Below, piece after piece: positions 6,211 through 62,289 of a stretch of 64,000 nt of DNA. Source of the DNA: a virus; IMG/VR virus record IMGVR_UViG_3300005573_000062, positions 62,099 to 126,098 of that record; one strand, written 5' to 3'. Position numbers and translations under genes: made by a program. A model generated the notes under the pieces. The model was not told the DNA's origin. It was given only the letters and a program-made list of their open reading frames with translations, and did no database searches. Positions within the stretch are counted from its first letter, which is position 1. Every line of letters starts with the position of its first letter.

Positions 6211-6216
6211 TATCGA

Positions 6217-6245
6217 TTGAACGAATTGTGGATTTTTTATATAAT
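6217..6245 (+). promoter_or_regulatory. sigma70-type promoter
   Basis: TTGAAC-17-TATAAT. Confidence 0.75.
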
Positions 6246-6314
6246 AATAAACAGAACTATGTTGAAAAGTTTTTAGACGCAAATTGTAGTTTAGTAAAAG
6301 AAAGGAGGAAATAG

Positions 6315-9002: not shown

Positions 9003-9859
9003 TAAAAGAAATTCATTTAACTAATTTTCAAAGCCATAAAGATACGATTTTAGAACTTCATGAAAATTTGAATGTTATAATTGGATCTTCAAATTCCGGA
9101 AAAAGTTCGATTGTTAGAGCTTTGAAATTTATCTTATTTGGAAAATGGGATCCTTCTTTTATTAAAGACGGTGAAAGTATTTCTAAAGTTTCAATTGTTT
9201 TAGATAATGGATATGCGATAGAAAGAGTAAAAGGAAATAAAAAGAATGAATTAAATATTATTTTTAATGGAACAACTAAGAAATATTCTGGATTCGGATC
9301 TACTGTTCCTCCTGAAGTAATAAAGATTATAGGTATAGTTCCATTGAATCTGTTAGATAAGGAAGAATTTTTAAATATTGCCGAACAGCACGATTCAATC
9401 TTTCTTTTAACTGAAGGTGGTTCTTTTAGAGCCAAGATATTGAGTAGTATATCTGGATTACATATATTAGATATGATTATAAAAGATTTAAATTCGGAGA
9501 TACGAAATATATCTACTGAGATAAATCGTTTAAAAGATGAAATAGATAAATTTCAAAAAAGGATAGATGATATAAAAGCAAAAGAATTGTTTTTTAATGA
9601 TATTCCTTTATTAAAAAAGCGGATAGATGAACAAAATGAGTTTAGAAGAAATAAAGATATATTTGTTAATCTTAAATATAAGGTTGATGAATATAATTCG
9701 AGAGTGAACGCTAGAAATAATTTATCTAATGAATTAGAAAAATTTAATATAGAAGCGTTGGAAAAGGAATTAGATAAAGCATTATTAGAAATACAAGTAT
9801 GCCCAACCTGTGGAAATAATATAAAGGAGGAAAATCTAAAATTCATAAAAAAATCATGA
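8999..9859 (+). CDS. SbcC/Rad50 N-terminal half (Walker A, coiled coil, zinc hook)
   Basis: LTNFQSH, GSSNSGKSS, Q-loop EQHD, coiled coil ending CPTCG. Confidence 0.88.
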   Translation: MIKEIHLTNFQSHKDTILELHENLNVIIGSSNSGKSSIVRALKFILFGKWDPSFIKDGESISKVSIVLDNGYAIERVKGNKKNELNIIFNGTTKKYSGFGSTVPPEVIKIIGIVPLNLLDKEEFLNIAEQHDSIFLLTEGGSFRAKILSSISGLHILDMIIKDLNSEIRNISTEINRLKDEIDKFQKRIDDIKAKELFFNDIPLLKKRIDEQNEFRRNKDIFVNLKYKVDEYNSRVNARNNLSNELEKFNIEALEKELDKALLEIQVCPTCGNNIKEENLKFIKKS

Positions 9860-11020: not shown

Positions 11021-11874
11021 ATACTATGAAAACAAAGACAAATGATATTGAAACATTGTTAGAGTCTTTTAAGAAAAGTGTAACTAAATATAATGATTTA
11101 AAATCAAAAATAGAATTGCTGAACGATTTTATTTCTAAAGAAAAAGTAAAGATAAAAGAAGAGTTATCAAAATTAGGTATAGAAGATAGTAAAAAACTAG
11201 AATTAAAAATCAATGAATTAAATGAAAAAATACTGAATGATGTCGATTTTTTATCTCTTAGGGCTAAATATGATGATTTGATTAGGGAACAAAATAAATT
11301 ATTTGGTGAAATGAATACTTATAATACTTTAAAAAAAGAAAAAGAAAATAAAACAATAGAATTGAAAAAAAGATTAGAAAAAGTTGAAAAGATGATAGCT
11401 TTTGTTATAAATTTAAATGAAGTTATAAAAGTTAAATTAATAGGTTATATTGAAGAAGTTGTGACTAGATCACTTAATCAGATCTTTAAAGTTGATCATT
11501 TTAAATTTAGAATTTCATTCGATACCCATGGTTCTACTCCTATTTCTAATTTTTATTTGATAGAAAATGGGATAGAAAAAGATGTTATTAATTCTTTTGG
11601 TGGAGGGGTAGCAGACATTGTCGGAATTGTTCTTAGGCTTGTTCTTTTGGAATTACAATATCCTAAAAATACAGCGCCGATTGTTTTAGATGAAACTGGC
11701 AAATTTATTTCTAACGATTATCAAGCTAGTTTTTCTGACTTTTTAAAGAATTGGTCTATGACTTTTAAACGACAAATTATTATTATATCACATAAAACTG
11801 AAGTTATAGGATTTAGTGATAGAATTATTGAAATAAAGAAAGAGAAACATTCGTTTCCTATAATAAAAAAATGA
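11008..11874 (+). CDS. SbcC/Rad50 C-terminal half (coiled coil, ABC signature, Walker B)
   Basis: SFGGG signature, IVLDE, IIISH. Confidence 0.88.
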   Translation: MQSLNTMKTKTNDIETLLESFKKSVTKYNDLKSKIELLNDFISKEKVKIKEELSKLGIEDSKKLELKINELNEKILNDVDFLSLRAKYDDLIREQNKLFGEMNTYNTLKKEKENKTIELKKRLEKVEKMIAFVINLNEVIKVKLIGYIEEVVTRSLNQIFKVDHFKFRISFDTHGSTPISNFYLIENGIEKDVINSFGGGVADIVGIVLRLVLLELQYPKNTAPIVLDETGKFISNDYQASFSDFLKNWSMTFKRQIIIISHKTEVIGFSDRIIEIKKEKHSFPIIKK

Positions 11875-11896
11875 TATAACATACCTTTTAAATTAG

Positions 11897-12724
11897 ATGA
11901 AAAAGTTAAGAGCTCGTCATCTTGCTATCTTTGATCTTCATATTCCTCATCATGTTCATTTAGAAGAAGTTTATAAATTTATAAGATGGTATAAACCAAC
12001 AGATTTGATAATAGGTGGGGATTTTTTAAATTTAGAATGGGCAAGTCATTGGAATGCTCCTGATTTTCCTATTATTGGATTAAGTAAATTATCTAATTGG
12101 TTAAAAGAAGAGTTCGAGACTGGAAAAGAAATTTTAAATACACTTAGAAAAGTATCGAATAAAGATGTTGTTATCTATTATATTCCTGGAAACCATGAAA
12201 ATTGGTTAAGACAGATGGTAACAAAATATCCAAGTCTTTTGGATAATGTTCACTTAATGAATGTAGATGATATTAATTCAGAAACTGATTTTTCTAGCTA
12301 TTCTAAGCAGTTTTTAGCTTTGCTATTAAATTCAGTCCTAGAATTATATAAATTTAAGATAAAAGTGCTTCCTCTTGACGTTCCACTTTATCTTAATAGA
12401 ATATATTACATTCACGGTCATCAAGTTAGGGGAATGAATCCGGCTAAAAATGCAGTTGAAAAATTTAAAAAAACAATCGTTTTTGGACACTTTCATACTC
12501 ATTCTATTTATACTTCTACAAGTTTGATAGATAGCAAAGAGATACATCAGGGGATTTGTGTCCCGTGTTTATCAAATTTAGATCCAGGATACATCAGTTC
12601 TTTAGCTAACAACTGGCTAAATGGATTTTATATTGCTAATTGTTATGATGACTATTTTGTTTCAAATGTTATTCCTATTATTAATGGAAAAGTAAGTTTA
12701 TTAAATGGAAACTTATTAAGTTAA
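11897..12724 (+). CDS. calcineurin-like metallophosphoesterase
   Basis: DLHIP, GGDF, PGNHE, IHGH, FGHFH. Confidence 0.88.
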   Translation: MKKLRARHLAIFDLHIPHHVHLEEVYKFIRWYKPTDLIIGGDFLNLEWASHWNAPDFPIIGLSKLSNWLKEEFETGKEILNTLRKVSNKDVVIYYIPGNHENWLRQMVTKYPSLLDNVHLMNVDDINSETDFSSYSKQFLALLLNSVLELYKFKIKVLPLDVPLYLNRIYYIHGHQVRGMNPAKNAVEKFKKTIVFGHFHTHSIYTSTSLIDSKEIHQGICVPCLSNLDPGYISSLANNWLNGFYIANCYDDYFVSNVIPIINGKVSLLNGNLLS

Positions 12725-12734
12725 GGAGTTTTGT

Positions 12735-13694
12735 ATGAATATTGAAGAAATCATAAAAAAGATGATACAGGATGAATTTTCAGAAATCGATTGGACTGAA
12801 TCAACTGAGAAAATAGAAAAAGATCTCATAGATTCAGTTTCTAAAAAAATTGAGATGTATCCAGAAATGAAGAATACTAATATTAAAGAAATAGTTCAAA
12901 GATATGTCAAACAAATTGTATCTGAATTGGAGAAAATGGATCAATCTACAATCTTAAGATTGTTTAACAATTTTGTATACGATATTCAGAATTACGAACA
13001 TTTGCCTTATTCATTAGATCCTAATGAACAATTTGAATCTCTTTTTGATTTATTTTACAAACAATTTAATAATAATAAAATTTTAGAATACAAAGATGAG
13101 TTGAAAAAATATTATCTAAATTTAATGGAAGAATCTCCTGTAGTATCTGAAGTTAAAAATATACTAAAGGATACAGAAGATCTCAAAGATTTCTTAATTT
13201 CATCATTACATGACGAATTAGCTAATGATACAGAGGCTTTAGATATAAAATACGACGATGATAAAGATGTAGTAATAAATAAATTATATAAATATTTAAA
13301 AACGACAGAATTTTACAAAACATTAATTTCTAATTTTGGAATAACTGATGAATATCTCTATGAGTTTTTAGATTTAATATATCTTGATGTATTGAAACGA
13401 TTAGGAATTCCTAACGAAAATGTACAAAAAACACTTTCTAAGAAAGATGTTAGAGATAGAGCAGCAAAATTATTTCAAAGATATATGGAAATGATTCAAG
13501 ATCCAACTGCAGATAAAAAAGAATTGAATAAGCTTTTAACTCAATATAAATCTCTTATTTCAGAAGCTTCATTTAAATGTTTACTTGTTATGAAAGCAAT
13601 TATTGATGATGATTTAGATCATTCTTTTTTTAAACTTTCAAAAGAAGGTCAGATCGAAGTTATGTATTTAATTAAAAAAGCATTTCTACAATAA
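12735..13694 (+). CDS. acidic helical hypothetical protein
   Basis: 319-aa ORF with RBS. Confidence 0.7.
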   Translation: MNIEEIIKKMIQDEFSEIDWTESTEKIEKDLIDSVSKKIEMYPEMKNTNIKEIVQRYVKQIVSELEKMDQSTILRLFNNFVYDIQNYEHLPYSLDPNEQFESLFDLFYKQFNNNKILEYKDELKKYYLNLMEESPVVSEVKNILKDTEDLKDFLISSLHDELANDTEALDIKYDDDKDVVINKLYKYLKTTEFYKTLISNFGITDEYLYEFLDLIYLDVLKRLGIPNENVQKTLSKKDVRDRAAKLFQRYMEMIQDPTADKKELNKLLTQYKSLISEASFKCLLVMKAIIDDDLDHSFFKLSKEGQIEVMYLIKKAFLQ

Positions 13695-13705
13695 ATATAT
13701 TTTCA

Positions 13706-13734
13706 TTGAATAATTCTAAGAATTTATATATAAT
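13706..13734 (+). promoter_or_regulatory. sigma70-type promoter, probably leaderless transcript
   Basis: TTGAAT-17-TATAAT; ATG 7 nt after the -10 box, no SD. Confidence 0.75.
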
Positions 13735-13741: not shown

Positions 13742-14296
13742 ATGACAAAGTATAAAGTTATTTTAGCAGATCCACCTTGGCTATATAACGATAAAGGAAG
13801 TAACAAGCATCCTGGAGCCCCTAGAAAATATGATTGTTTGAATATAAATGAACTTCAATCTTTGTCGATGGATTTAATAGCTGATGACAATTGTGTCTTA
13901 TTTTTATGGTCAACGATGCCTATGCTCCCCAATGCTATAAGAGTAGTAGAATCCTGGGGTTTTAAGTATAAAACTATCGGTTTTGTTTGGGTTAAACGTA
14001 ATAAGAAGAAAAAAGATGGGTGGTTTTATGGGATGGGTAATTGGACGAGATCTAATCCGGAAGTTGTAATTTTGGCAGTTAAAGGTAAGCCTAAAAGAGT
14101 TTCAGCTGCTGTTCATAGTATTATAGAAGCCCCAGTAAGAATTCATAGTCAAAAGCCAGATGAGTTATATGAACGTATAGAGAAGTTATGTGGGGATGTT
14201 CCTAGAATTGAATTGTTTGCTAGAAAAAGACGGGAAGGATGGGATAGCATGGGGTATGAAATAGACGGGAAAGATATTAGAGAAATTCTAAAGTAA
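13742..14296 (+). CDS. MT-A70-family N6-adenine methyltransferase
   Basis: ILADPPW, LFLW, WGFKY, WVK, HSQKPD, RIELFAR. Confidence 0.93.
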   Translation: MTKYKVILADPPWLYNDKGSNKHPGAPRKYDCLNINELQSLSMDLIADDNCVLFLWSTMPMLPNAIRVVESWGFKYKTIGFVWVKRNKKKKDGWFYGMGNWTRSNPEVVILAVKGKPKRVSAAVHSIIEAPVRIHSQKPDELYERIEKLCGDVPRIELFARKRREGWDSMGYEIDGKDIREILK

Positions 14297-14307
14297 GGAG
14301 AATTAAC

Positions 14308-14712
14308 ATGGAAAATCAAGAAATTCTTTATTCATCTGTTACTTCTGATGATGAAAAATTAATAGATACGTTATTTTCTACTTTTAATAGATTTAGATTC
14401 ATCGAAAAGGAGCATCTTTTTATTGTATATAGTCATAAATCGTTTAAAGATCATATAAAAATAGTTAAAATTCCTTCATATCTTAGTCTTTTTTTACCTA
14501 AAAAGATTGCTATTATAATAGATAAAGAAAATTGGGGCTATTTAGATAAGAATGCTAAACTAGCTCTTTTATTTTCTGTCTTTCTTAGAATAACTCCAGG
14601 CAAAAAAGAGCAATATAAATTAATTCCTCCAGATTTAAAAGGTTTTAAAGAAGCTCTTAAACTTTTCGGTATAGATAATGAGAAAGCGAATGAAGTGTTT
14701 AAAACGATATGA
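14308..14712 (+). CDS. phage metallopeptidase-like fold protein lacking HExxH
   Basis: IIIDKENW..L....K.ALL and LIPPDL..F pattern. Confidence 0.4.
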   Translation: MENQEILYSSVTSDDEKLIDTLFSTFNRFRFIEKEHLFIVYSHKSFKDHIKIVKIPSYLSLFLPKKIAIIIDKENWGYLDKNAKLALLFSVFLRITPGKKEQYKLIPPDLKGFKEALKLFGIDNEKANEVFKTI

Positions 14713-16967
14713 AAAAAGTGTTGGATGGCTATTTTGATTCAGACTACGTATATTTAATTCAAAAGGATATAGTTGGTAAGTATGAAGAAAAGATTCCTTT
14801 TGATTGGTATTTTTATTCAGACTATTCTTTTATTGAATACATATTGAAAAATTCAAGTGTAGATTCTTTTAAAAAAGCTTTTAATATATCTAAAATCATT
14901 GTAAAAAAGCCATATTGTCAAATTTTTATTCCATACGAAAATTCCAAAAGTTTAATATCTACAATTGAAAGATATGGATTTAAAACATATGAGGGAGAAG
15001 TTGATCCAATTAAACGTTATATTATCGATTCAGAAGATTGTCAAATATCTGATGAATATAAAATATTATATTTTGATATAGAAACAGATGATAGACCAAA
15101 TGCAGATAATAGTACCGATATTATTGTAGGTTCTAAATCAATTCTTAGTATTTCTGGATATTGTTCGGAAACGGATTATTTTACTATTTGTGAGGATAGC
15201 GAAATAGAAGTTCTTAGAAAAGCATTGGAAAAATTTAAAGAGTATGATATTATCGTTGGTTGGAATTCTAAGAGTTTTGACTTACCTTATATTATTAATA
15301 GATTGAATTTTTATAAATCAAAAGGATTAGATATTGTTAAAGAAGTTAAGTTTGATTGGCATAGAATTATACATGTAGACTTAATGTGGAGATTTAAACA
15401 TGTATATCAGCATAATTCAGTTCTTACTTCTTTTAGTTTAAAGAGGGTTTCTGAATATTTTAAAGTAGGAGCAAAATTAGATTTAAATAATAGAAAGATT
15501 TATGATCTATTTATTAATGATAGAGAACTTTTAATGAAGTACAATCTTCAGGATTGTCGTTTGTTGTATGAACTTGAAAGTAAGTTAGGCATTATTCAGC
15601 ATATGATTAGCATGGCTATTTTTTGTAAAACTTTTTTATCTGATTTTTATATCACTGAGTTATTGAATAACATTTCATTAATATATTCAAACAAATATAA
15701 TATTAGATTGGAAACTAAAAAATTTATTAATGAAAAGAAGGAAGAGTATGTAGGAGGGTATGTTTTAGATCCAGTTTCCGGTCTTCATCGAAATGTCTAT
15801 ATCTTTGATTTTCAATCTCTTTATCCGAATATCATACGAACTTGGAATGTTTCTCCTGACACGCTTTTGAATGAATCGAATGGAGATTGTATAAAAAGTT
15901 GTTTAGATGGGGTATTTTTCAAGAAAGATAAAATGGGATTACTCCCGTCGATAGAAACATATCTTTTGAATTTGAGAAATGAATATAAAGAAAAGAAAAA
16001 AGCACTTAAAAAAGAAGGCAAGGAAAATTCAGTTGATTATTCTGTAGCAGATAGAAATGAAAAAATTATAAAAGAACTAGCAAATTCAGTGTATGGGGCT
16101 ACAGCAAACAATAGATCTAGATTCTTTGATCTTAGATTAGCTGAATCAATTACATTAGCTGGTCAAACATTAATTAAATTTGCTAAAAAATTTTTTACAG
16201 ATTTAGGATTCGTTGTTGTTTCTGGGGATACAGATTCTATTATGGTTTCTCTTAAAGATGGGTCAGACTATAAATTTTTATTAGATAAATTTCACGCTGA
16301 ATTGGACAAATTTTTATTTTCAACTTATAATACTTTGAATCCTACCACTCGTTTTAAATATGAAAAACGATTTGATAAATTTATTGTTATTAAGAAAAAA
16401 AATTATGTGGGTAGAGTAATAGATGATGGATCTCCATGCGATACAATTTACGCTAAAGGGTTAGAGTTGATTAAGAAAGATACGATAAAATATACTAGAG
16501 AAAGATTGTCAGAATTGATAAAGAATTTATTATACACTGATAATCCATTAGATTTCTATGTTAAATATATAGAAGACGAATGGGAAAAGATAAATACGAT
16601 TAATGTAAATCCAGAAGATATAGTAATAACTAAGAAGATTTCTAAAGATTTTTCTGAATATAAATCTCTTCCTATGCAGGTTAAAATTGCTAAAAAAGTC
16701 TGGAATTCTAACAATAAAGATTTTTTTATCGGAATGGACTTTCAATATGTGATTAAAGATTCTCTAGACAAAGAGAATAAAGCTATCTGGGTAGGTGAAT
16801 TTGATGGTAAATTCGATAGAAATTATTATTGGGAACACCTTATTTATCCACCTTTTAGGAGAATTTTAGAGGTCGTATTTCCATCGTATCAATGGGATAA
16901 GTATGAACATGGTAAATATTGGATTAAACCGAGTCGTTCCAGAAAAAAGGCATTGAAAAAAAGTTAA
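14709..16967 (+). CDS. family B DNA polymerase with proofreading exonuclease
   Basis: FDIET, GWNS.SFD, YNLQD, DFQSLYP, KELANSVYG, GDTDS, KKKNY. Confidence 0.96.
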   Translation: MKKVLDGYFDSDYVYLIQKDIVGKYEEKIPFDWYFYSDYSFIEYILKNSSVDSFKKAFNISKIIVKKPYCQIFIPYENSKSLISTIERYGFKTYEGEVDPIKRYIIDSEDCQISDEYKILYFDIETDDRPNADNSTDIIVGSKSILSISGYCSETDYFTICEDSEIEVLRKALEKFKEYDIIVGWNSKSFDLPYIINRLNFYKSKGLDIVKEVKFDWHRIIHVDLMWRFKHVYQHNSVLTSFSLKRVSEYFKVGAKLDLNNRKIYDLFINDRELLMKYNLQDCRLLYELESKLGIIQHMISMAIFCKTFLSDFYITELLNNISLIYSNKYNIRLETKKFINEKKEEYVGGYVLDPVSGLHRNVYIFDFQSLYPNIIRTWNVSPDTLLNESNGDCIKSCLDGVFFKKDKMGLLPSIETYLLNLRNEYKEKKKALKKEGKENSVDYSVADRNEKIIKELANSVYGATANNRSRFFDLRLAESITLAGQTLIKFAKKFFTDLGFVVVSGDTDSIMVSLKDGSDYKFLLDKFHAELDKFLFSTYNTLNPTTRFKYEKRFDKFIVIKKKNYVGRVIDDGSPCDTIYAKGLELIKKDTIKYTRERLSELIKNLLYTDNPLDFYVKYIEDEWEKINTINVNPEDIVITKKISKDFSEYKSLPMQVKIAKKVWNSNNKDFFIGMDFQYVIKDSLDKENKAIWVGEFDGKFDRNYYWEHLIYPPFRRILEVVFPSYQWDKYEHGKYWIKPSRSRKKALKKS

Positions 16968-16981
16968 AAACGTTATATAAT
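16953..16981 (+). promoter_or_regulatory. sigma70-type promoter of the nucleotide-modification operon
   Basis: TTGAAA-17-TATAAT; ATG 8 nt downstream. Confidence 0.75.
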
Positions 16982-16989
16982 ATAAACAT

Positions 16990-17685
16990 ATGAGAGAGTG
17001 TATAAGATGTGGGAAAAGTATTCCTAGTATTCCTGGAGTAGATAAATGTATAAGTTGTTATAATAAATCGAGAGATTTTAAAAAATTAAAAATTTCTGAA
17101 TACTTCGGTATGTTTCCTTTGGATTTTGGTTGGAGTTTTTATTTGACACCTGAGGAATATTCTTTAATTCCAGAAACGAGATCTCTAGGAATGTATTTTA
17201 AACCTTTTGTTTATGAGATATTAAATAAAATAGAAAAGAAAAATAAAATAGTAAAATTTTTTAAAGATATTGTTTTTAAATATAGTGAAATATCTACTTG
17301 TAATAGAAGAAAGGTTGGAGCAATTATTACCATTAATGATCGAATAATTTCAACTGGGACGAATGGTAGTGTATCAGGACTGCCTCATTGTGATGAAGAT
17401 GGGTGTTTAATAGAGGACAATCATTGTGTTAGGACTGTTCATGCTGAAATTAATGCAATATTAAATTGTGCAAATCTTGGAATTTCATTAAAAGATTCAA
17501 TATTATATTCTACTGATTTTCCTTGTTTTAGATGTATATCTGCTATTGGCAATTCAGTTATTAAGTCAGTTGTCTATTTTAGAGACTACAAGGATAAATA
17601 TAATAAAAAGATTTTATCTGGAATATCACATAGGATAAATTTTTATTATTTCGATGGTAATCTCATTAGGAGGAATAATGGATAG
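16990..17685 (+). CDS. dCMP deaminase with N-terminal zinc-ribbon extension
   Basis: STCNRRKVGA, HAEINA, PCFRC. Confidence 0.9.
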   Translation: MRECIRCGKSIPSIPGVDKCISCYNKSRDFKKLKISEYFGMFPLDFGWSFYLTPEEYSLIPETRSLGMYFKPFVYEILNKIEKKNKIVKFFKDIVFKYSEISTCNRRKVGAIITINDRIISTGTNGSVSGLPHCDEDGCLIEDNHCVRTVHAEINAILNCANLGISLKDSILYSTDFPCFRCISAIGNSVIKSVVYFRDYKDKYNKKILSGISHRINFYYFDGNLIRRNNG

Positions 17686-17941
17686 ATATAATATACCGAA
17701 AGGAAATAGTAATTTGAGTGAAATCCTTGGGTTGTTGAATACTAACGATTTCTATTTTCATATAACGTTAACGGCTCTCATTGAGCTATTAAAAGAAAAG
17801 AAAGGGCCGGACGGTAATCCTTTGATTACTGAGGAAGAAATAGAAATTAAAATCAAAGACGTTAGAGATAGAACAATGAATCAATTGAAAATAATTTCAC
17901 CAGCAGCTGGAAAGATAATAACTGATAAGGAGATAAAATGA
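17678..17941 (+). CDS. hypothetical protein
   Basis: AGGAGG RBS before ATG 17678. Confidence 0.65.
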   Translation: MDRYNIPKGNSNLSEILGLLNTNDFYFHITLTALIELLKEKKGPDGNPLITEEEIEIKIKDVRDRTMNQLKIISPAAGKIITDKEIK

Positions 17942-18336
17942 AAAAACTAATAGTAATAAGTATATTATTGATAGCATCTGCAGTAAAAGCAGAGATGTTT
18001 TCAAACCTGCAACCTGCATCATTTAGGGATGTTCAGCATGGAGTATGGTATTTTGGTGGTACTACTAATGTGTATAAATATAAAGTAGTATCACTTGATG
18101 TTGGTCTGATTAAAAATTCAGAGATCCAGGAGAATCTATTTCCAATTGGCGGTATCATGTTTTATGGAAGAGAATTTCTTGCAAATAATCCCAAATTAGC
18201 TAAATTGTCAGAAAGCATAGATTTTGACAAGAATCTACTTAAATATATTAACATTGGATTTTGGGGTGGAAAGAATTTTAACGTTAGTAAATGGATGTGG
18301 GGATTCTACTTTGGATTCAGAATTGAAATTAAATAA
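17938..18336 (+). CDS. secreted or outer-membrane beta-strand protein
   Basis: Signal peptide MKKLIVISILLIASAVKA; aromatic alternating C-terminal strand WGFYFGFRIEIK. Confidence 0.55.
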   Translation: MKKLIVISILLIASAVKAEMFSNLQPASFRDVQHGVWYFGGTTNVYKYKVVSLDVGLIKNSEIQENLFPIGGIMFYGREFLANNPKLAKLSESIDFDKNLLKYINIGFWGGKNFNVSKWMWGFYFGFRIEIK

Positions 18337-18674
18337 TGGAGAATAATATGGATATAGATAATACTCAAGCTAAATTAAAGGAATGGAGATCAAAAAATTT
18401 TAAGGAAATAACAGATCAACAACAATTGATGGGAATAATGGAAGAAGTAGGAGAGTTATCACACGCTATGCTTAAGTGGAAACAAGGGATCAGAGGATAT
18501 GATAAAAAAAGAGCATATGAAGAAATGCAGGATGCTATTGGAGATATGATTATATTTGCGATGGGATTGTGTGATGTTTATGGATGGAAGATGTCTGATA
18601 TAATTAAAAAGACTTCTGATTATGTTTTGACTAGGGATTGGAATAAAAATAAAATAGACGGGCATAATAAATGA
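18336..18674 (+). CDS. MazG-like nucleotide pyrophosphohydrolase
   Basis: MEEVGEL ... DAIGD. Confidence 0.88.
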   Translation: MENNMDIDNTQAKLKEWRSKNFKEITDQQQLMGIMEEVGELSHAMLKWKQGIRGYDKKRAYEEMQDAIGDMIIFAMGLCDVYGWKMSDIIKKTSDYVLTRDWNKNKIDGHNK

Positions 18675-19945
18675 CAATTATCGATACTATTATAATTGGG
18701 GCAGGGCCTACTGGATTGAGTGCCGCTTATCAACTAAATAAGTTAGGCAAAGATTTTGTTCTATTCGAAAGAACTAATAAAATTGGTGGATTATGCGGCA
18801 CTTTTGGGGATAGTATTATATTTGATAAAACTTCTCATATATTTTTTTCTAAAGATCCTGAGATTCTAAAATTAGTTAATGTTTTTGATCTTAATATATA
18901 TAATAGAAGAGCAGTTGTTAACGTTAATAAATATTTAATTCCTTTCCCTGTTCAAAATAATATTGGGTCCTTTCCAGATGAAATAAAAATTCAGATTTTA
19001 AAAGAAGTGTGTAGTTTAAAAAATAAGAAATCAAACAATTATAAAGATCATTTAATAAATACTTTTGGGAAAACTTTATTTTCAACTGTATTAAAAGATT
19101 ATAATAGTAAAGTTTGGAACTATGATTTATCTAAAATGGGGACATACTGGTTTGACGGTAGAATATGTTTGTTGACGATGGAGCAAATATTAAATTCAAT
19201 GATTAATAAGAAATCTTGGGGTCCTAATAGTATATTTTATTATCCAGTAGGATCTTTTTTTAATAGACTTTTTACTCCTCTTATAAAAGATATACCATCT
19301 GATCGAATATTATTTAATACAGTAATAACTAATATTGATCTCGTAAATAAGAAAGTAGTAGTTAATAATAAACATGAATTTAAATATAATAATTTAATAT
19401 CTACGATGCCTTTAGTTTCTCTTTGTAAAATGTTAAAACTAAAATGTGATTTTCCTTATACTGATGTCATAAATGATGCTATTAGTGTAAAATTGGATTC
19501 CCCAGTCGATCATAAATTTCATTGGATGTACTATTCAAATCCTAAATTTCCTTATTATCGAATTTTTAATTTATCTTCAGTCAATACTTCAATATCTAAC
19601 ACTGAATTACGATTTTTATGTGAAATCTCTTTTAAAGACAATTCTGTTCCATCACATAATGTTGAGGCTTTGTTAGGTCAAATTTTATATGATTTTGGTA
19701 TTATGCAACCTTATGAAGTTAAGATTGTTAATTCTTATCATGTTAAGTATGCTTATCCTATTCCAATAATAGGTTTAGAGAAAAGAGTTAAAAAGATTCT
19801 TGATTTTCTGGATTCTAAGAATATTTATTCAAGAGGAAGATTTGGTGCATGGAGTTATAAGTATGGCAACACTGACCATGCTATTAGATACGGTTTAGAT
19901 GTTGCTAATAGAATCGCAGAAAACAAAAAGGAGTCATTAGTATGA
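18671..19945 (+). CDS. FAD-dependent UDP-galactopyranose mutase-like enzyme
   Basis: GAGPTGLSAA; PFPVQNNI; WGPNSIFYYP; YR; SRGRFGAWSYKYGNTDH. Confidence 0.75.
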   Translation: MTIIDTIIIGAGPTGLSAAYQLNKLGKDFVLFERTNKIGGLCGTFGDSIIFDKTSHIFFSKDPEILKLVNVFDLNIYNRRAVVNVNKYLIPFPVQNNIGSFPDEIKIQILKEVCSLKNKKSNNYKDHLINTFGKTLFSTVLKDYNSKVWNYDLSKMGTYWFDGRICLLTMEQILNSMINKKSWGPNSIFYYPVGSFFNRLFTPLIKDIPSDRILFNTVITNIDLVNKKVVVNNKHEFKYNNLISTMPLVSLCKMLKLKCDFPYTDVINDAISVKLDSPVDHKFHWMYYSNPKFPYYRIFNLSSVNTSISNTELRFLCEISFKDNSVPSHNVEALLGQILYDFGIMQPYEVKIVNSYHVKYAYPIPIIGLEKRVKKILDFLDSKNIYSRGRFGAWSYKYGNTDHAIRYGLDVANRIAENKKESLV

Positions 19946-21063
19946 GAGTGGGATATTCTTTTTGGGGAATATTTTCTGAAGTAAACGTTGATATGCCATC
20001 GACCATAAATTCATACGTTCCTTGGATTATTCTTGGATTGCTTGAAAAAAAGTGTAAAGTATATCCTCTTCAAATCAATTTAGATGAACACTTTAGTAGA
20101 AAATTTAATAAAAAGATAAATTTTACATATTTATATGATTCATACTCTATCGAAAAAGTATATAAGCATCTTTTTGAAAATTCTACAATCATTCCTGGAA
20201 TATCACTTCCAGATTTAGATTTAGTGATAATAGATTGGAGATGGCCGATTCCAGGAAGAAATACTGAAAAAGATAGAAAATTTCCTGATTTTACTCCAGA
20301 TTTAGTTCGGCAGAATGAGATTTTGGAACATTATTCAAAAAGAAATACACAAATAATAGTGCTAGATCTTGATCATAAAGTTACAATAGAAGATGAAAAG
20401 AAATGGGAGTTTCACATCATAGAACCTGCTATTCAGCCTAAAAATCAATATATAAAAAGGGTTTCATCTGTTTTGCCTTATAAATTTTTTAAAATATATT
20501 ATCAGGGAATGAAAGATAGAAATTCTTTGATAACATATGTTGGAAACAATTATGAAAGAGAAAGAGCTATTAATGAATATATTTATCCAATATCGACAAA
20601 AGATAGATTTAAAAATAAAATAACTTTTTATGGAAATTGGATAAAATATGATAAAGTATATAAAGAGTTAATAACTAAATGGCCTTATTTTAATTATTTA
20701 GGTAAGGTAACAAAAGAAGATTATTTATATGTATATGGGAAAAGTTATACTACTCCATTGCTAGCTAAAGATAGTTATTATAAGTATGGTTTTATGACCC
20801 CTAGGCAGATTGAATCTGTATTGTATGGGTGTATTCCTGTTGGTTTTTCTGAGCATTTAGGTATTGATAAATTTATTCCAAAGAAATTTATTGTTAAAGA
20901 TTATAATGAGTATATTAATCTTTTAAATGAGTTATTATCTGTAACGGAAAGAGACTATAATAATTATCTTCATTCTTTTGAAGACTTTTTTCATATGTAT
21001 GATTATAAAAAGTTTGCAGATTTGTTACTAAAATTATGTGAGGAGGCTCCGTGCCTCTTATAA
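19942..21063 (+). CDS. GT-B glycosyltransferase, probably DNA base-modifying
   Basis: GYSFWG, WRWPIPGRN, DLDHK, YVGNNYER, FYGNW, RQIE..YGCIP; hmC-synthase context. Confidence 0.72.
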   Translation: MRVGYSFWGIFSEVNVDMPSTINSYVPWIILGLLEKKCKVYPLQINLDEHFSRKFNKKINFTYLYDSYSIEKVYKHLFENSTIIPGISLPDLDLVIIDWRWPIPGRNTEKDRKFPDFTPDLVRQNEILEHYSKRNTQIIVLDLDHKVTIEDEKKWEFHIIEPAIQPKNQYIKRVSSVLPYKFFKIYYQGMKDRNSLITYVGNNYERERAINEYIYPISTKDRFKNKITFYGNWIKYDKVYKELITKWPYFNYLGKVTKEDYLYVYGKSYTTPLLAKDSYYKYGFMTPRQIESVLYGCIPVGFSEHLGIDKFIPKKFIVKDYNEYINLLNELLSVTERDYNNYLHSFEDFFHMYDYKKFADLLLKLCEEAPCLL

Positions 21064-21587
21064 TTTTTGATTCTTATGATTGTGCAGGGAAAACGACTTT
21101 ACTTAATGAATTTATTAAAAAGACAAAGTACCCTATATCTGAATCGTTTTTAAATCAAAGACCGAAATTCAAGAACCCCGATGAGAATTATCTCTGGTCG
21201 AAAGCATGGCACTATGGTATTCTTGGAATTCTTAAATCCTGTGATATTAATTTAGTAGTCGATCGGTTTATAATGTCTGAATATTGTTATTCTATTGTTC
21301 TTAGAGGTTATAAAATTGATTACTTTGATGATTATATTAAAGAACTAAAAAAATGTAAAACCAGAGTGACCTGGGTTTACCCGACACTAAATAATAGTAA
21401 TTGGTTAAAGGAGCTTAAAAGAAGATATACTGATAAAAAAGAGGATTATATAAGTTTTAATAAGTTATTATCAGTGAAGAAAATGTATGATTCATTATTT
21501 CGCAGTTTTTCTTTAACTAAAATTAAGATTAATACTATGGAATCTATAGATAAGTGTATTGATAGATTAACAGGAGAGTTGTCATGA
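21051..21587 (+). CDS. thymidylate-kinase-like dNMP kinase
   Basis: IIFDSYDCAGKTT P-loop, VVDRF. Confidence 0.8.
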   Translation: MPLIIFDSYDCAGKTTLLNEFIKKTKYPISESFLNQRPKFKNPDENYLWSKAWHYGILGILKSCDINLVVDRFIMSEYCYSIVLRGYKIDYFDDYIKELKKCKTRVTWVYPTLNNSNWLKELKRRYTDKKEDYISFNKLLSVKKMYDSLFRSFSLTKIKINTMESIDKCIDRLTGELS

Positions 21588-22297
21588 AGATAATAAAGTT
21601 GGAAGAAATTGATATTAATAAATATACTAATTTTTCTTGGGATTTGCAAACTGATTTATTGAAATACGAGGATGACCTGATTTCTAAGGATGCTGCTTGC
21701 ATAGAAATGAGTAAATATAAATTTTCAGATTCCCGAGTACTTAATTTTTTGACTCTTACTTCTTTGCCTTTTTATACTAGAGAAGATGATATTCATTCTT
21801 CTATTCTATCCCTTCTGTGGGGATTTACTAAATGTTCTAAATGTGACACTACTGTAAAAAGATACACAGGTATTACGGGGAATCTAAAACCGAAATTTCT
21901 ATTTATAGGAGAGGCTCCAGGGGTAGGAGATGGGGAAAAATCTATAATGGATAGAACACTAGTATATGGTCCGACATCTCATTTAGTTCGTCAGACTCTA
22001 TTAGAACTTGGACTTATACAGTATAGTGCATTTACGAATTTATTAAAATGTTCTTTACCTAACAACAGACCAGGATATGCGAATGAATATTCTAATTGTC
22101 TTTATTTTCTTCAAAATGAAATAAATGCGCTAAATCCGAAAGTAGTTATTCTTTTCGGATCTCGAGTAAATACTTATTTATCTAAACATTTAACAGTTCC
22201 TTTTATTAAAATAAATCATCCGACCTATTATATTTATGAACATAAAGAGCATTTATTTAAAGAAGAATTAAATGCTAAAATAATTAAATATCGTTAA
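21584..22297 (+). CDS. uracil-DNA glycosylase superfamily (family 4-like)
   Basis: CSKC, FIGEAPG, TNLLKC, NNRP, LFG, HPTY. Confidence 0.85.
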   Translation: MKIIKLEEIDINKYTNFSWDLQTDLLKYEDDLISKDAACIEMSKYKFSDSRVLNFLTLTSLPFYTREDDIHSSILSLLWGFTKCSKCDTTVKRYTGITGNLKPKFLFIGEAPGVGDGEKSIMDRTLVYGPTSHLVRQTLLELGLIQYSAFTNLLKCSLPNNRPGYANEYSNCLYFLQNEINALNPKVVILFGSRVNTYLSKHLTVPFIKINHPTYYIYEHKEHLFKEELNAKIIKYR

Positions 22298-22311
22298 CAT
22301 TTGGAGGAACA

Positions 22312-23226
22312 ATGATTGAATATTTAAGTGTTGATAGAATTAATCATATAATACAAGGGTATAACATAAATGATGTTTTTTTAAAACTAGCAGAACATAT
22401 ACTTAGCAAAGGTAAAAAAGTTTCTCCTCGTGGTATAAATACATTAGAAGTTAGTCCTCTTATGACTATTATAGAAAAACCTTCTGATAATATTATTTTA
22501 TTTAAAGAGAGAAAGTTGAATAGATTATTTTCAGCAATGGAATTATGTTGGATTTTAAGTGGGGATGAGGATCCATGGATTATTGAATATTTAAAAACTT
22601 TAAATAATTATACTGATGAATTTGAAGGAAAAAGGTATCTAATGGGAGCGTATGGTCCTAGGATAAGAAAGTATACAGCAATTGATCCTATTACCAAAAA
22701 AGTGGATACTATTGATCAGTTGAAATATGTTGTAGATAAACTGTCAACGGATAAAGATAGTAGACAGGCTATTATAGTTATTTGGAATCCCACAGCAGAC
22801 ACAAGGAAAAATAAGGATATTCCCTGTACAAATCTTATGAAATTTTCAATTAGGGATAACAAACTTAATATGACAGTATTTATGAGAAGCAATGATTTAT
22901 ATCGTGGAAGTTGTTATGATTTTTTTAATTTTACTTCTATTCAATGTCTTTTAGCAGGTATTTTAAATGTTCAAATCGGAACTTACTATCATATTGCCGA
23001 TAGTCATCATATCTATGAGTCAGACATTTCAAAGATTGAAAATATTTTAAAAAATTCAGATACTATAAAAACAGATTTTCCTGAAATAATTAATTCTGAA
23101 AGATATATATCTATTGATGAATTAGATGCTGATCTAAAAGGTAGAAATGCTCCTTTGATACATAATAAATATATATCTAATCTTTATAGGTGGGTCGATG
23201 AAAATAAGAAAAAGAATTTGCTTTAA
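22312..23226 (+). CDS. thymidylate synthase homolog, predicted dCMP hydroxymethylase/methylase
   Basis: GAYGPR, DSRQA, IPCT, MRSND...GSCYD (Asp at the specificity position), SHHIYE. Confidence 0.85.
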   Translation: MIEYLSVDRINHIIQGYNINDVFLKLAEHILSKGKKVSPRGINTLEVSPLMTIIEKPSDNIILFKERKLNRLFSAMELCWILSGDEDPWIIEYLKTLNNYTDEFEGKRYLMGAYGPRIRKYTAIDPITKKVDTIDQLKYVVDKLSTDKDSRQAIIVIWNPTADTRKNKDIPCTNLMKFSIRDNKLNMTVFMRSNDLYRGSCYDFFNFTSIQCLLAGILNVQIGTYYHIADSHHIYESDISKIENILKNSDTIKTDFPEIINSERYISIDELDADLKGRNAPLIHNKYISNLYRWVDENKKKNLL

Positions 23227-23386
23227 CTGTGGGAAAGTTAAAAGTATTAAATATTTTACTTCTGATTTTAGAATTTGTAATACTTGTTTGAAAGAAAAAC
23301 TTGAGTATTCAATCAATCAAGTCAAAGAAAAGAGTAATGACATCTTGAGATATAACATAGCTTTTTTTAAGAGGAAATTGAAATGA
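23198..23386 (+). CDS. small zinc-finger protein
   Basis: CFNC...CNTC. Confidence 0.55.
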   Translation: MKIRKRICFNCGKVKSIKYFTSDFRICNTCLKEKLEYSINQVKEKSNDILRYNIAFFKRKLK

Positions 23387-23697
23387 AAAAGCTTTTCGAT
23401 TCAGCTAAAAAATATATAACCGAAAAAGATTTTGATTATTATCAAGACTATTTGCAACTTAGAAAAATGTTATATGAATTAATTGTTGAATTTAAGTATG
23501 AGTTGAAAAATCAAAATATTTCTTTAGTAGAAATTGCAGATATAAATACAATTTTAAAGGATTTTGATTCATACGTAGAAAGTATTGTTAAACACTCTCC
23601 AGATAATGAAAATGAGTTAGAAAATTATTTAGTTGAAAGATTAAAACATCTTTTTGGAGTAGAAAAATTTGATATTAATTTTGAAATAAAAAAATAA
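23383..23697 (+). CDS. hypothetical protein
   Basis: Coupled ORF. Confidence 0.6.
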   Translation: MKKLFDSAKKYITEKDFDYYQDYLQLRKMLYELIVEFKYELKNQNISLVEIADINTILKDFDSYVESIVKHSPDNENELENYLVERLKHLFGVEKFDINFEIKK

Positions 23698-23739
23698 CTG
23701 TGTACATAGTGTTGTAAAATTTGATATAATTTTAGAAAG

Positions 23740-24150
23740 ATGATCATAAAAGACTGGGATAATCACCTCCAATATCTAGTTAGGAAATTTTTTGAGTCTC
23801 CTTTAGATGACGCAACACTTAAGGAATACCTATTTAAAAAACACCAAATCGACGATACTGAAGAAAAAGACGAAAAAGTTAGAAAGCTTAAAATCATTTT
23901 TCATCTTTTGCACAATAATTTTTTCGCTCCTCAAGAAACTAAAGTATTGTCGCTATATCTAGGATGGATGAATGATCGTTGGATCAAACCTAGAAAAATA
24001 TCTGATATTGCTAAAATAATGGGTATTAGTCAGGCGGTTACTTACAACTATTTTATGAATGCAGTTAAGAAGTTAAGGAAGTATTTCTCGGTCGAAAATA
24101 ATAGGGAGGACTATTATGGTAATAAAAGAAGCCGAAAAGGTTCCGTTTGA
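23740..24150 (+). CDS. sigma70 region-4-like HTH protein
   Basis: ETKVLSLYLG...ISDIAKIMGISQAVTYNYFMNAVKKLR; preceded by extended -10 TGATATAAT. Confidence 0.75.
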   Translation: MIIKDWDNHLQYLVRKFFESPLDDATLKEYLFKKHQIDDTEEKDEKVRKLKIIFHLLHNNFFAPQETKVLSLYLGWMNDRWIKPRKISDIAKIMGISQAVTYNYFMNAVKKLRKYFSVENNREDYYGNKRSRKGSV

Positions 24151-25783
24151 GACATTTCAGTTAGCTAAAAAGTATATAAAAGGAGATCCAGAAGGAAGTT
24201 ACGAAAAATTTTTAGATATAAGATCTGCTATTTATGAAGCTACAAATGAAGCGATTTCTGATCTGATAAGTAATAAAGGAATATATGTAGATAGAAAAAA
24301 ATTATCAGATTTTGATGAATTTTTAAGAGATTTTATTTCTAATTCTCCAAATGATCCATCACAACTCGATTCTTATATTGATGATAAAATTTTTAAATAT
24401 TTGACTTCGACTATTGGTACTTCAAAAAGGAGAGTAACAAAAGAAAAGAAACCAGTTGTCGAAGAGGTTGAGAAAAAACCGGTTGAAGAAAAAGAAGTTG
24501 CCAAAAAAGTTAGAGAAAAAGGAATAGATCCTTATGAAGTGGAAACTCGAAAAATAATAAAAGATATAAGAGATGGAGTGAATTACGATGAAAACCTTTC
24601 CAAATTATTTGAAATGTATATAGATATGATTAAAAATATTGTATATAAGCATCCAGGCTTAGTTGAATTTTCAGCAAGAGAATCTGAAGGATATAAAAAA
24701 GAAAAGATACCTGGTTCTGTTTATATCGATCCTAAGATAGAAGACATTATTGCAGAAGCAATCGATCCATTTATGAAAGCGATTAAAGATTTTGATTTAG
24801 AAGGAGACACGAAATTTTCTACTTTTTTATATACCTATGTTGATCAATATTTTAAGAATTTGTATACTACTAAACAAATTTCAAAACTGCGCCAAGAAGG
24901 TGAGTTTGATTTTGTTTTAACTCGTGATACCGGAAAAATAGATAAATTAGAAGATTATAATTCAGCGAAATTAATAGGATTCAATATTGAGGAAAGTAAA
25001 ATAATAGATAGCACTGGGAAAGAATATATTGAAAATAAGGATTATAAGTTTGATGGTACAGAGATAGAATGGATTGGAGATTCTCCTAAAGAAGGAAATG
25101 AATATCAAATTTTTATTGAAACATCTAAACCATACAAAGAGATTAGCTTATCTTCTCCTCTATCAGAGGATGAAGAATCTGAATCAACTTTAGAAGAAAC
25201 TATTCCTGAATCTTCTGTAGATATTTTAAAATTATTAGAATCCGAAGCTGATAAGATAAGAGAACAATATGCTCAGTCTGTTGGGTATGATTTAAGTGAA
25301 GAAGATAAAGACATGGGAGATCTAATAAATAAAATATGGGTGGCGATACGCGCCGAAGAGGAAGACAAAAAAAGAAGATTAGAGGACAAAGAAATTAAGG
25401 ATATAATTTTGAAAATGATAGAAAATTCTACTGGAATAGCAATTAGTGATCTTGATTTAGAAGATACAGAAGAAAAAATTTTATATGATAAATTAGTATC
25501 GGCTGTTGATGAAATTTATAACTATCTTGTAAAAGAAAAATTAACGATTACTGATGCTAAAAAGAAAATGACTTTTTTTGATTTAATACAAGATTACGAT
25601 GAAGGAACAGCTAGAAGGATAATGATGGATAGGTTTGGAGTTATTCCTTCTACCCTGACAGAGTGGCTAAGTAGGCATGTGAATCCTAGTATCGCTAAAG
25701 TGCTAGGGATAGAATTTAATACCCCAGATGGTAAATTATCATCTGAACATTTATACCAATTAATAAAAACTCAAGCTAAATAA
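24116..25783 (+). CDS. large sigma70-like transcription factor
   Basis: Region 2: FMKAIKDFD..GDTKFSTFLYTYV; region 3.2-like ISLSSPL..TLEETI; C-terminal HTH RFGVIPSTLTEW. Confidence 0.7.
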   Translation: MVIKEAEKVPFETFQLAKKYIKGDPEGSYEKFLDIRSAIYEATNEAISDLISNKGIYVDRKKLSDFDEFLRDFISNSPNDPSQLDSYIDDKIFKYLTSTIGTSKRRVTKEKKPVVEEVEKKPVEEKEVAKKVREKGIDPYEVETRKIIKDIRDGVNYDENLSKLFEMYIDMIKNIVYKHPGLVEFSARESEGYKKEKIPGSVYIDPKIEDIIAEAIDPFMKAIKDFDLEGDTKFSTFLYTYVDQYFKNLYTTKQISKLRQEGEFDFVLTRDTGKIDKLEDYNSAKLIGFNIEESKIIDSTGKEYIENKDYKFDGTEIEWIGDSPKEGNEYQIFIETSKPYKEISLSSPLSEDEESESTLEETIPESSVDILKLLESEADKIREQYAQSVGYDLSEEDKDMGDLINKIWVAIRAEEEDKKRRLEDKEIKDIILKMIENSTGIAISDLDLEDTEEKILYDKLVSAVDEIYNYLVKEKLTITDAKKKMTFFDLIQDYDEGTARRIMMDRFGVIPSTLTEWLSRHVNPSIAKVLGIEFNTPDGKLSSEHLYQLIKTQAK

Positions 25784-62076: not shown

Positions 62077-62289
62077 ATGAAATCCAATAAATCTAAATTC
62101 GTAACAATTTCATTTCCTAATATAGACAATGAAAAAATGAAATATATGATAGAGGCAGAACAAGCTTTAATAAAAGCAGGAATCCATTTTGATACAGGAT
62201 ATGATAGTTGTGAGAAAAGAAGGGATTGGTTTTTTGATTGGTCGTTAAAAGGAGCAATTGTAAAAGAACAAAAAAATAATCTGTCATGA
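62077..62289 (+). CDS. small conserved phage protein
   Basis: GIHFDTG...RDW..DWSLKG. Confidence 0.65.
   Translation: MKSNKSKFVTISFPNIDNEKMKYMIEAEQALIKAGIHFDTGYDSCEKRRDWFFDWSLKGAIVKEQKNNLS

Follow-up and report, generated by a model that had tools for sequence, protein, structure and literature searches.

A phage gene block predicted to place a furanose on 5-hydroxymethylcytosine through a mutase-linked glycosyltransferase

The window analysed here is a stretch of 64,000 nucleotides from a viral record (IMG/VR IMGVR_UViG_3300005573_000062, positions 62,099 to 126,098). It forms the second half of this record, which has 126,098 bases and an estimated completeness of ~71%; the G+C content is ~28%, i.e. 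A+T makes up 72%. We focused on a block of nine open reading frames (ORFs) at 16990-23226 on the + strand, which lies directly 3' of polB (14709-16967), the gene for a family-B DNA polymerase, with 22 bases between the end of polB and the start of the first gene of the block. A gene coding for a homolog of UDP-galactopyranose mutase (UGM) is found here immediately in front of a gene for a GT-B glycosyltransferase (GT), in the company of a thymidylate synthase (TS) homolog and further genes for nucleotide metabolism proteins. We propose that the block might be used to replace cytosine by 5-hydroxymethylcytosine (5hmC) in the phage DNA and to decorate the modified base with a furanose. In gene order, the nine ORFs are:

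16990-17685, + strand: dCMP deaminase (PF00383, E 1.2e-17, residues 98-197; phrog_174, E 2.6e-37; HAE and PCxxC motifs)
17654-17941, + strand: 95-aa ORF with no family above noise, overlapping both neighbours
17938-18336, + strand: 132-aa ORF with a signal-peptide-like N-terminus and no family, taken from the ORF list
18336-18674, + strand: MazG-like NTP pyrophosphohydrolase, candidate dCTPase (phrog_715, E 1.1e-7)
18671-19945, + strand: eukaryote-type UGM homolog, FAD-dependent type (phmmer against PDB, 4dsg, E 4.3e-45)
19942-21063, + strand: GT-B glycosyltransferase resembling T4 beta-glucosyltransferase, predicted 5hmC-DNA furanosyltransferase (AlphaFold2 model, hhalign and context)
21051-21587, + strand: TMK-like P-loop kinase, predicted 5-hydroxymethyl-dCMP kinase (TIGR00041, E 5.6e-7, below the cut-off)
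21584-22297, + strand: family-4 uracil-DNA glycosylase (UDG)-like protein (PF03167, E 2.2e-11; NF040953, E 2.7e-16)
22312-23226, + strand: TS homolog with a dCMP hydroxymethylase signature (PF00303, E 1.9e-30)

From the deaminase gene through the ORF that follows the TS homolog, neighbouring genes overlap by 1-32 bases or are separated by a 14-base gap. The stop of the UGM gene overlaps the start of the GT gene by 4 bases, the GT gene is regarded as translationally coupled to the UGM gene, and the GT and kinase genes overlap by 13 bases. The seven enzyme genes named in the original prediction, which had been made from the DNA letters, all lie on the + strand where it had placed them, and the 95-aa and 132-aa ORFs between the deaminase and MazG genes were absent from its list. 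That a single promoter drives the block, as had also been claimed, could not be confirmed. The promoter meant was probably the TTGAAA-17-TATAAT element at 16953-16981, which agrees with the consensus at 11 of 12 positions. This match is no more than expected by chance, since promoter-like sites are about as frequent in shuffled sequence (123.6 +/- 11.4, compared with 135 in the region itself). Shine-Dalgarno-like GGAG motifs precede most of the genes and are, together with the 28% G+C, the only hints regarding the host that were seen.

The nature of the modified base is indicated by the TS homolog. Its best match in the PDB is the CMP 5-hydroxymethylase MilA (5b6d, E 4.7e-25), and the best true TS follows at 7.5e-17. 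We aligned the window protein with E. coli ThyA, T4 gp42, RB69 gp48 and RL38J1 gp216, and use the E. coli numbering for all of them. Asp143, the catalytic Cys146 and Arg166, Asp169 and Asp177 are found in the window protein. The first of these is part of a KDIPC motif, where E. coli has a leucine at position 143, and the segment MRSNDLYRGSCYD aligns with QRSCDVFLGLPFN of the E. coli and MRSNDVVFGFRND of the T4 protein, which places an aspartate at the Asn177 position. Asp143/Asp169/Asp177 is the signature of T4 gp42, whereas both RB69 gp48 and RL38J1 gp216 carry an asparagine at position 169. According to a recent study, an aspartate at the E. coli Asn177 position confers cytosine specificity, and an acidic residue at position 143 gives access to water and hence a hydroxymethyl product, while a bulky hydrophobic residue there is linked to methylation (Lee et al., NAR 2026, PMC13326640). 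The same study shows that RB69 gp48 and RL38J1 gp216 make 5-hydroxy-dCMP using flavin and proposes D169N as diagnostic of 5-hydroxy-dCMP synthases. Asp169 is kept in the window enzyme, which by this rule should be a hydroxymethylase and not a hydroxylase. The residues D/E143-C146-R166-D169-D177 were also present in 32 of 33 TS ORFs that are linked to relatives of the GT (a set that includes the window and four near-duplicate loci), the 33rd ORF being cut by a contig end.

One might argue that the TS homolog is instead a 5-hydroxy-dCMP synthase or a dCMP methylase, in which case the base would be a glycosylated 5-hydroxycytosine (5hoC), as in RL38J1, or 5-methylcytosine. The genome of RL38J1 codes for a TS homolog together with a kinase, GTs and a UGM, its modified base is 5hoC, and MilA is also the best structural match of its gp216 (Lee et al., PMC13326640). 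However, the window protein and every one of the 32 complete TS homologs linked to the GT family keep Asp169, where RB69 gp48 and RL38J1 gp216 have an asparagine, and at position 143 the window protein has an aspartate, not one of the large hydrophobic residues that go with methylation. We therefore consider this alternative very improbable, and the suggestion that cytosine is replaced by 5hmC is supported, with the TS homolog carrying the signature of a dCMP hydroxymethylase and not of a 5-hydroxylase.

The GT was analysed by structure prediction. A word-indexed search of 5.8 billion proteins returned five other proteins that match it, and the AlphaFold2 model built from that alignment has a GT-B fold (pLDDT 81.5, pTM 0.84). 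A Foldseek search of this model against the PDB gave 306 matches at E <= 0.001, and those listed are GT-B glycosyltransferases. The top match in VIA-align was the T4 beta-glucosyltransferase (BGT; 1nzd), with Z 20.8, an rmsd of 3.6 over 301 aligned residues and 15-16% identity; the T4 alpha-glucosyltransferase reached Z 19.2. When the profile of the GT family was compared with T4 BGT by hhalign, 187 columns of the C-domain were aligned with E 1.9e-5, at a probability of only 78%. A direct blastp comparison of the GT with T4 BGT was not significant. The family-invariant residues R206, R288 and E291 align with R195, R269 and E272 of BGT, which we take to be its UDP-binding residues. The N-domain is left unaligned by hhalign; here, the family-conserved motif [D/E]98-W-R-W-P-I-P is a candidate for the equivalent of Asp100, the catalytic base of BGT.

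Viral or metagenomic contigs are almost the only places where relatives of this GT occur. Among 1.84 billion representative proteins, a profile search yielded 566 family members at E <= 1e-3, of which 156 reached E <= 1e-30. Only three relatives were detected among 185,579 species genomes, and all three are on contigs of metagenome-assembled genomes (MAGs). A tblastn search against 50,697 phage records gave no match at E <= 0.01. These data bear on the acceptor of the sugar, which could be a nucleotide, with the sugar attached before polymerization, or a protein or surface glycan, instead of 5hmC in replicated DNA. The kinase gene stands right beside the GT gene in this family, and the data of Lee et al., by their own statement, do not tell whether the first arabinose joins the mononucleotide or the DNA (PMC13326640). 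On the other hand, the best structure and profile match is the DNA-acting T4 BGT, the T4 alpha-glucosyltransferase is also among the close structural matches, and the family is embedded in genes for replication and nucleotide metabolism and is nearly absent from the species genomes, as described above. An acceptor other than DNA thus appears improbable to us. The original prediction had placed the GT in a DNA-modification pathway, and it is in favor of this assignment that T4 BGT is the best match and that dozens of phage loci have a member of the family next to genes for TS homologs and kinases.

The UGM gene lies directly upstream of the GT gene; therefore, the donor should be a furanose and not the UDP-glucose used by the T4 enzymes. 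The UGM homolog (424 aa) matches the Trypanosoma cruzi UGM (4dsg) over residues 6-415 with E 4.3e-45 in a phmmer search of PDB sequences. The Aspergillus fumigatus UGMs follow at ~1e-38, in two stretches (3ute, 2e-38), and the bacterial Glf-type UGMs align only with the first 155 aa. NCBIfam PRK07208 is matched with E 4.9e-40. The GxGxxG motif of an FAD-binding Rossmann fold is present (IIIGAGPTGL, residues 7-16; PF13450, E 7.2e-13), and the FAD-binding part is all that Pfam recognizes in this protein. In an alignment of 42 homologs, the invariant or nearly invariant columns H56, R164, W183-G-P-N186, R297, Y362, R388, R390, Y396 and N400 are kept. R297, Y362, R388, R390 and Y396 are invariant among the 42 homologs, R164 is nearly so, and all of them align with the T. 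cruzi UGM, where we assume that these arginine and tyrosine residues bind the UDP-sugar. Likewise, YPxP and a C-terminal SRGRFGxWxYxxGNxDH block are retained. The window protein is thus homologous to the T. cruzi and A. fumigatus enzymes over its full length and has the Rossmann motif, the C-terminal block and the histidine of the loop in common with them, but it is ~60-90 residues shorter, has Thr-Ser in place of Gly-Gly in front of the loop histidine and is encoded in a phage operon for nucleotide metabolism. Searching the 50,697 phage records with this protein by tblastn gave only 14 records, most of which cover just the N-terminal Rossmann part.

A gene for an SDR-type NDP-sugar epimerase/dehydratase (320 aa, GalE-like, with a zinc-ribbon CxxC...CxxC insert) is located on the - strand at ~5772-6734 of the record, ~75 kb from the block, and has an amidase-like gene as its neighbour. 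In the PDB, the encoded protein is most similar to UDP-glucose 4-epimerases (4zrm, E 7.8e-15). It could be the source of the UDP-galactose used by the mutase, or it could have a function of another kind.

If the furanose were one other than galactofuranose (Galf), an altered UGM would act on, for example, UDP-L-arabinose, UDP-GalNAc or a 6-deoxy sugar, and the product would be a different furanosyl-5hmC. UGMs also accept UDP-L-arabinose. The window UGM and two close homologs have Thr-Ser instead of the Gly-Gly of the histidine loop, and sister clades of the GT are paired with mutases of the RGP/GT75 family (Pfam PF03214), for which UDP-arabinose is the substrate in plants. Evidence on the other side comes from the positions that align with the sugar- and diphosphate-binding residues of solved UGMs, which are kept, from the grouping of the window GT with Glf-linked and not with RGP-linked GTs, and from the GalE-like epimerase encoded elsewhere on the same record. 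Taken together, we regard a furanose other than Galf as unlikely and retain galactofuranosyl-5hmC as the predicted product.

To place the block in a wider context, we collected loci that code for relatives of the GT. Pattern scans based on the GT alignment gave 10 viral loci, and 80 loci were kept from 267 metagenomic relatives. Hidden Markov models made from the window proteins and the first relatives were run on all ORFs of these 90 loci and of the window. The resulting 91 GT-bearing loci form 77 clusters at 95% identity, 26 of which extend at least 4 kb to both sides of the GT and are referred to as long loci. The neighbours of the GT were distributed as follows:

Any mutase within 6 kb of the GT: 39/77 clusters, 21/26 long loci
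RGP/GT75 type (PF03214) near the GT: 20/77 clusters, 14/26 long loci
Bacterial Glf type (PF03275) near the GT: 17/77 clusters, 6/26 long loci
Eukaryote-type UGM near the GT: 2/77 clusters, 1/26 long loci (the window)
TMK-like kinase within 6 kb of the GT: 52/77 clusters, 25/26 long loci
TS homolog within 10 kb of the GT: 28/77 clusters, 14/26 long loci
dCMP deaminase within 10 kb of the GT: 34/77 clusters, 18/26 long loci
UDG-like protein within 6 kb of the GT: 8/77 clusters, 3/26 long loci

Pfam confirmed the RGP family with E values of 5e-36 to 2e-46 and the Glf family with 1e-34 to 5.5e-68. The metal-dependent GT75/RGP mutases are the third type of mutase that occupies the slot next to the GT. 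This computational survey establishes a conserved linkage of the GT with the kinase, a hydroxymethylase-type TS homolog and a mutase, in addition to the gene identities and active-site signatures described above. Searching gene neighbourhoods for the co-occurrence of UGM, GT and a TS homolog with the aspartate had been suggested along with the original prediction, and the outcome, with mutases near the GT in most long loci and the hydroxymethylase signature in all 32 complete linked TS homologs, agrees with it. The occurrence of three kinds of mutase beside the GT family also speaks for the suggestion that the phage makes the furanose donor with its own mutase.

The kind of mutase tracks the GT lineage. 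In a tree of 68 GT sequences, the RGP-linked GTs fall into one clade of 36 rows (18 labelled RGP and 18 unlabelled) with an SH-aLRT support of 97, and the window GT lies inside a starred set to which every one of the 16 Glf-linked rows belongs, along with a single RGP row. For the 37 rows that carry a label, three changes of the mutase label suffice. Such an agreement is expected if the donor specificity of the GT and the mutase go together. These observations also bear on the idea that the GT adds an ordinary pyranose, glucose or galactose, to 5hmC, and that the UGM homolog serves a second sugar or alters a glycan of the host or the phage. UDP-glucose is the donor of T4 BGT, which is the closest relative of the GT with a solved structure, and some loci of the GT family are without any mutase. 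However, the mutase gene overlaps the GT gene in the window, three kinds of mutase recur in the slot beside the GT family (21/26 long loci), the kind of mutase follows the GT phylogeny, and a PF00534 scan of the ~71% complete record found no other GT. We consider a pyranose to be quite unlikely and favor the transfer of a furanose.

Several loci contain further genes next to the GT. RGP/UDP-arabinopyranose mutase homologs, for example at L004:7179-8165, L005:8402-9490 and L007:8205-9263, lie one or two genes upstream of the GT. In locus L009, an ORF of 685 aa (11094-13151), located between the GT and a dCMP deaminase, has a Glf-type UGM in its first 350 residues (PF03275, E 5.5e-68) and a C-terminal half without a Pfam match. 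Directly after the GT of L005, a protein of the IMPDH/GMP-reductase family is encoded (11088-12140; PF00478, E 5e-94), followed by an ORF of 409 aa (12483-13712) with a dCMP deaminase in its C-terminal part. Two loci code for tandem GT paralogs beside a Glf-type mutase (L044:2196-3356 and 4172-5287; L048:6609-7748 and 7989-9143), which hints at di-glycosylation in those phages.

Based on these results, we propose that the block constitutes a T4-style module for cytosine replacement and glycosylation, the product of which would be galactofuranosyl-5hmC DNA; judging from the sequences, we would give this complete mechanism a probability of roughly 55%. In this model, the TS homolog would convert dCMP to 5-hydroxymethyl-dCMP with methylene-tetrahydrofolate, which would then be phosphorylated to the diphosphate by the TMK-like kinase and to the triphosphate by a host NDP kinase. 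The phage family-B polymerase, encoded just upstream, would incorporate 5-hydroxymethyl-dCTP, while the MazG-like pyrophosphohydrolase probably destroys dCTP and the dCMP deaminase would supply dUMP toward dTTP for a genome with 72% A+T. To provide the donor, the eukaryote-type UGM would convert UDP-galactopyranose of the host to UDP-galactofuranose. In the last step, the GT would move the furanose onto the hydroxymethyl group of 5hmC in the phage DNA, where the sugar might shield the DNA against restriction and CRISPR nucleases. What we infer from the genes and their arrangement comprises all of the chemistry, including which sugar is attached (Galf versus L-arabinofuranose or another furanose) and to which acceptor (DNA versus nucleotide), as well as the roles of the MazG- and UDG-like proteins. 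We further speculate that this BGT-like, largely virus-restricted family comprises 5hmC-capping DNA furanosyltransferases, that an adjacent and exchangeable gene for a tailoring enzyme determines which sugar they attach, with the slot having been filled independently by Glf, eukaryote-type UGM and GT75/RGP mutases and elsewhere by an epimerase or a radical-SAM enzyme, and that the phage studied here carries galactofuranosyl-5hmC. This more general proposal is tentative, and we hold its chance to be slightly short of even.

A number of observations weigh against the proposed mechanism. For the GT itself, no Pfam, NCBIfam or meaningful PHROG match and no curated family was found, and the structural comparison is not selective, since BshA, TarM and PimA nearly tie with T4 BGT (Z ~20, with differences of less than 1 Z unit); the hhalign probability of 78% given above has to be added here. 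The GT of RL38J1, gp215, has no detectable relation to the GT family profile (probability 0.2). The UGM homolog gave no match to PF03275 (GLF) at E <= 0.1, although this model may simply not cover eukaryote-type UGMs; the Glf-type enzymes of L001, L009 and L010 do match it. His56 is kept in the window UGM, but the preceding Gly-Gly is replaced by Thr-Ser in this protein and in two close homologs that are 72-75% identical, while Gly-Gly is found at this place in most of the other 39 of the 42 sequences aligned. We presume that the Gly-Gly-His histidine loop is a functional feature of UGMs, and its alteration possibly reflects a changed activity or substrate of the window enzyme. Two of the accessory enzymes have low scores: the MazG-like protein reaches E 0.003-0.005 in Pfam (17-18 bits, with cut-offs of 22-27) and the kinase 29.5 bits for TIGR00041 (cut-off 83).

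Further points of this kind come from the family survey. Just 14/26 long loci have a TS homolog at a distance of up to 10 kb from the GT, and five of the 26 (L032, L075, L086, L096 and L098) have no mutase. Three loci were inspected more closely. Two of them belong to these five, and another enzyme is encoded there between the kinase and the GT, namely an SDR epimerase (L075:7042-8004) and a radical-SAM/SPASM enzyme (L086:7133-8017). The third, L093, codes for a GT47-like protein upstream of the kinase (6378-7442); this locus is not among the 26, as its contig ends less than 4 kb past the GT. The presence of an epimerase or a radical-SAM enzyme in the place of the mutase means that the GT family is not tied to furanoses as such, and the slot beside the GT therefore seems to hold a variable sugar-tailoring enzyme. 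The enzymes of L075, L086 and L093 suggest further, different sugar modifications. The GT tree was obtained with a quick IQ-TREE search, from which 14 near-duplicates and GTs of less than 330 aa were left out. In this tree, the window GT and the 81%-identical GT of L020 adjoin the Glf-linked GT of L001 with a support of 93, in a grouping that is not starred and with a long branch of 1.42. Finally, no ThyX, PF00534 GT, dUTPase or second TS homolog was found in the record, but absences carry little weight because the record is only ~71% complete.

T-even phages use the dCMP hydroxymethylase (gp42 in T4), the deaminase Cd, the dCTPase gp56, the dNMP kinase gp1 and alpha- and beta-glucosyltransferases to produce glucosyl-5hmC, with which T4 hides its DNA from nucleases of the host. 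The window resembles this system in its TS homolog with Asp143/Asp169/Asp177, its dCMP deaminase, kinase and NTP pyrophosphatase, and its GT-B transferase, of which T4 BGT is the closest solved structure. It differs in that the kinase is TMK-like and the pyrophosphatase MazG-like, and these are not homologs of gp1 and gp56 by name. In addition, the GT is only remotely BGT-like (15-16% identity), and a family-4 UDG is encoded in the block.

A second point of comparison is the Rhizobium phage RL38J1 (Pootjesviridae), for which Lee et al. describe the 5-hydroxy-dCMP synthase gp216, the GT gp215, the kinase gp214 and the UGM gp084, and propose that the phage Glf makes UDP-Galf for galactosyl-glucosyl-5-hydroxycytosine (PMC13326640). 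As in the window, one genome codes for a phage UGM as well as for a GT, a TS homolog and a TMK-like kinase. The base is expected to differ, as gp216 with its Asn169 makes 5hoC and the window protein has Asp169. Also, the UGM of RL38J1 is of the bacterial Glf type and encoded ~60 kb from the TS, GT and kinase genes, whereas the UGM of the window is of the eukaryote type and its gene overlaps that of the GT. Orthology of the parts was considered and rejected: the UGMs are 25% identical, and this only within the N-terminal 150 aa, the TS homologs share 28%, and a relation of the GTs or of the kinases was undetectable. The window differs from RL38J1 in base signature, mutase type, GT family and the tight coupling of UGM and GT.

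The same study reports D-arabinofuranosyl-5-hydroxycytosine for the phages RB69, DLP3 and HY126, the furanose having been established by NMR in RB69 and DLP3 (PMC13326640). Common to these phages and the proposed module is a furanose on a C5-substituted cytosine in phage DNA. Their sugar is derived from ribulose-5-phosphate by an isomerase, a kinase/uridylyltransferase and a phosphatase and not by a pyranose/furanose mutase, and their base is 5hoC.

The original prediction had also held that the combination of genes is not a characterized pathway. This claim has been partly overtaken by arabinofuranosyl-5hoC and by the UGM proposed for RL38J1 (PMC13326640). Our literature search found no paper on a furanosyl-5hmC base or on an RGP/GT75 mutase in a phage DNA-modification cluster. 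Among the papers searched, none linked the RGP/GT75 family to phages, and a sugar mutase was linked to phage DNA modification only in PMC13326640. In the passages considered of two other papers, one merely speculates on a galactofuranosyltransferase-like ORF in Enterococcus phages (PMC4999554), and the other counts a UGM encoded by a phage among the genes that benefit the host (PMC6630229). The two ideas of a furanose on a C5-modified cytosine and of a phage UGM that feeds a DNA GT are already in print for 5-hydroxycytosine phages (PMC13326640), and this tempers the value of the module described here.

If the proposed mechanism is true, a furanosyl-oxymethyl-cytosine would be added as a new natural DNA base to the hypermodification repertoire of phages, and galactofuranosyl-5hmC would be a DNA base not yet seen chemically. 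It would also mean that phages diversify the sugars on their DNA by exchanging one donor-tailoring gene beside a conserved transferase, which bears on the escape from restriction enzymes, CRISPR nucleases and type IV enzymes that recognize glucosyl-hmC. A mutase together with a DNA furanosyltransferase would furthermore be a ready enzyme pair for the labelling of 5hmC.

The other enzymes of the block have several features of their own. The MazG-like translation contains an EExxE...ExxD motif (EEVGE...EEMQD), and its gene is also kept in the close relatives L019 and L020. The kinase, which has AGKTT and DRF motifs, matches phrog_761 with E 3e-8, and its best PDB match is YorR of SPbeta (2axp, E 0.002). 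In the dCMP deaminase, ~85 aa are added at the N-terminus (16990-17240); this extension contains two CxxC pairs, is zinc-ribbon-like and gives weak matches to DksA/TraR-type zinc fingers (E 0.025-0.076). An N-terminal extension, here of ~80 aa, is also present in the UDG-like protein, in which motif A reads GEAPG and motif B HPT (NHPTYY). This protein matches 4zbx in the PDB with E 7.3e-12; the cysteines of its CxxC and KC (KC..NNR) motifs align with those of 4zbx and TM0511, and the fourth Fe-S cysteine, located before YFL, aligns with TM0511 only. The eight clusters with a UDG in the module are the window, L010, L021, L035, L047, L076, L084 and L089, and the gene is usually located between those for the kinase and the mutase. 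In these UDGs, motif A is GEAPG or GDAPG and motif B HP[ST], and some of them, e.g. that of L010, are almost without cysteines. A possible role of the module UDG is to guard DNA with furanosyl-5hmC against uracil or deaminated bases.

Regarding the origin of the record, no close isolated phage was found for PolB, for which the best matches are 25-28% identical, and a blastn search of the block against the 50,697 phage records gave no match. The assembly of the block was compared with DNA sequencing runs. A contig of 11,424 bases from one run, possibly the source run, covers 17451-24500 without a difference, and a second run covers the block in pieces that agree exactly but leave some of the junctions unbridged. 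Skip joints seen in the comparison of run contigs over 14000-24500 have sides of only 20-24 letters and were not taken as real. Downstream of the block, a 62-aa ORF with a CxxC...CxxC pattern (23198-23386) shares its first 29 bases with the end of the TS homolog gene. Two DNA runs labelled hot springs metagenome contain 14000-24500 exactly or nearly so.

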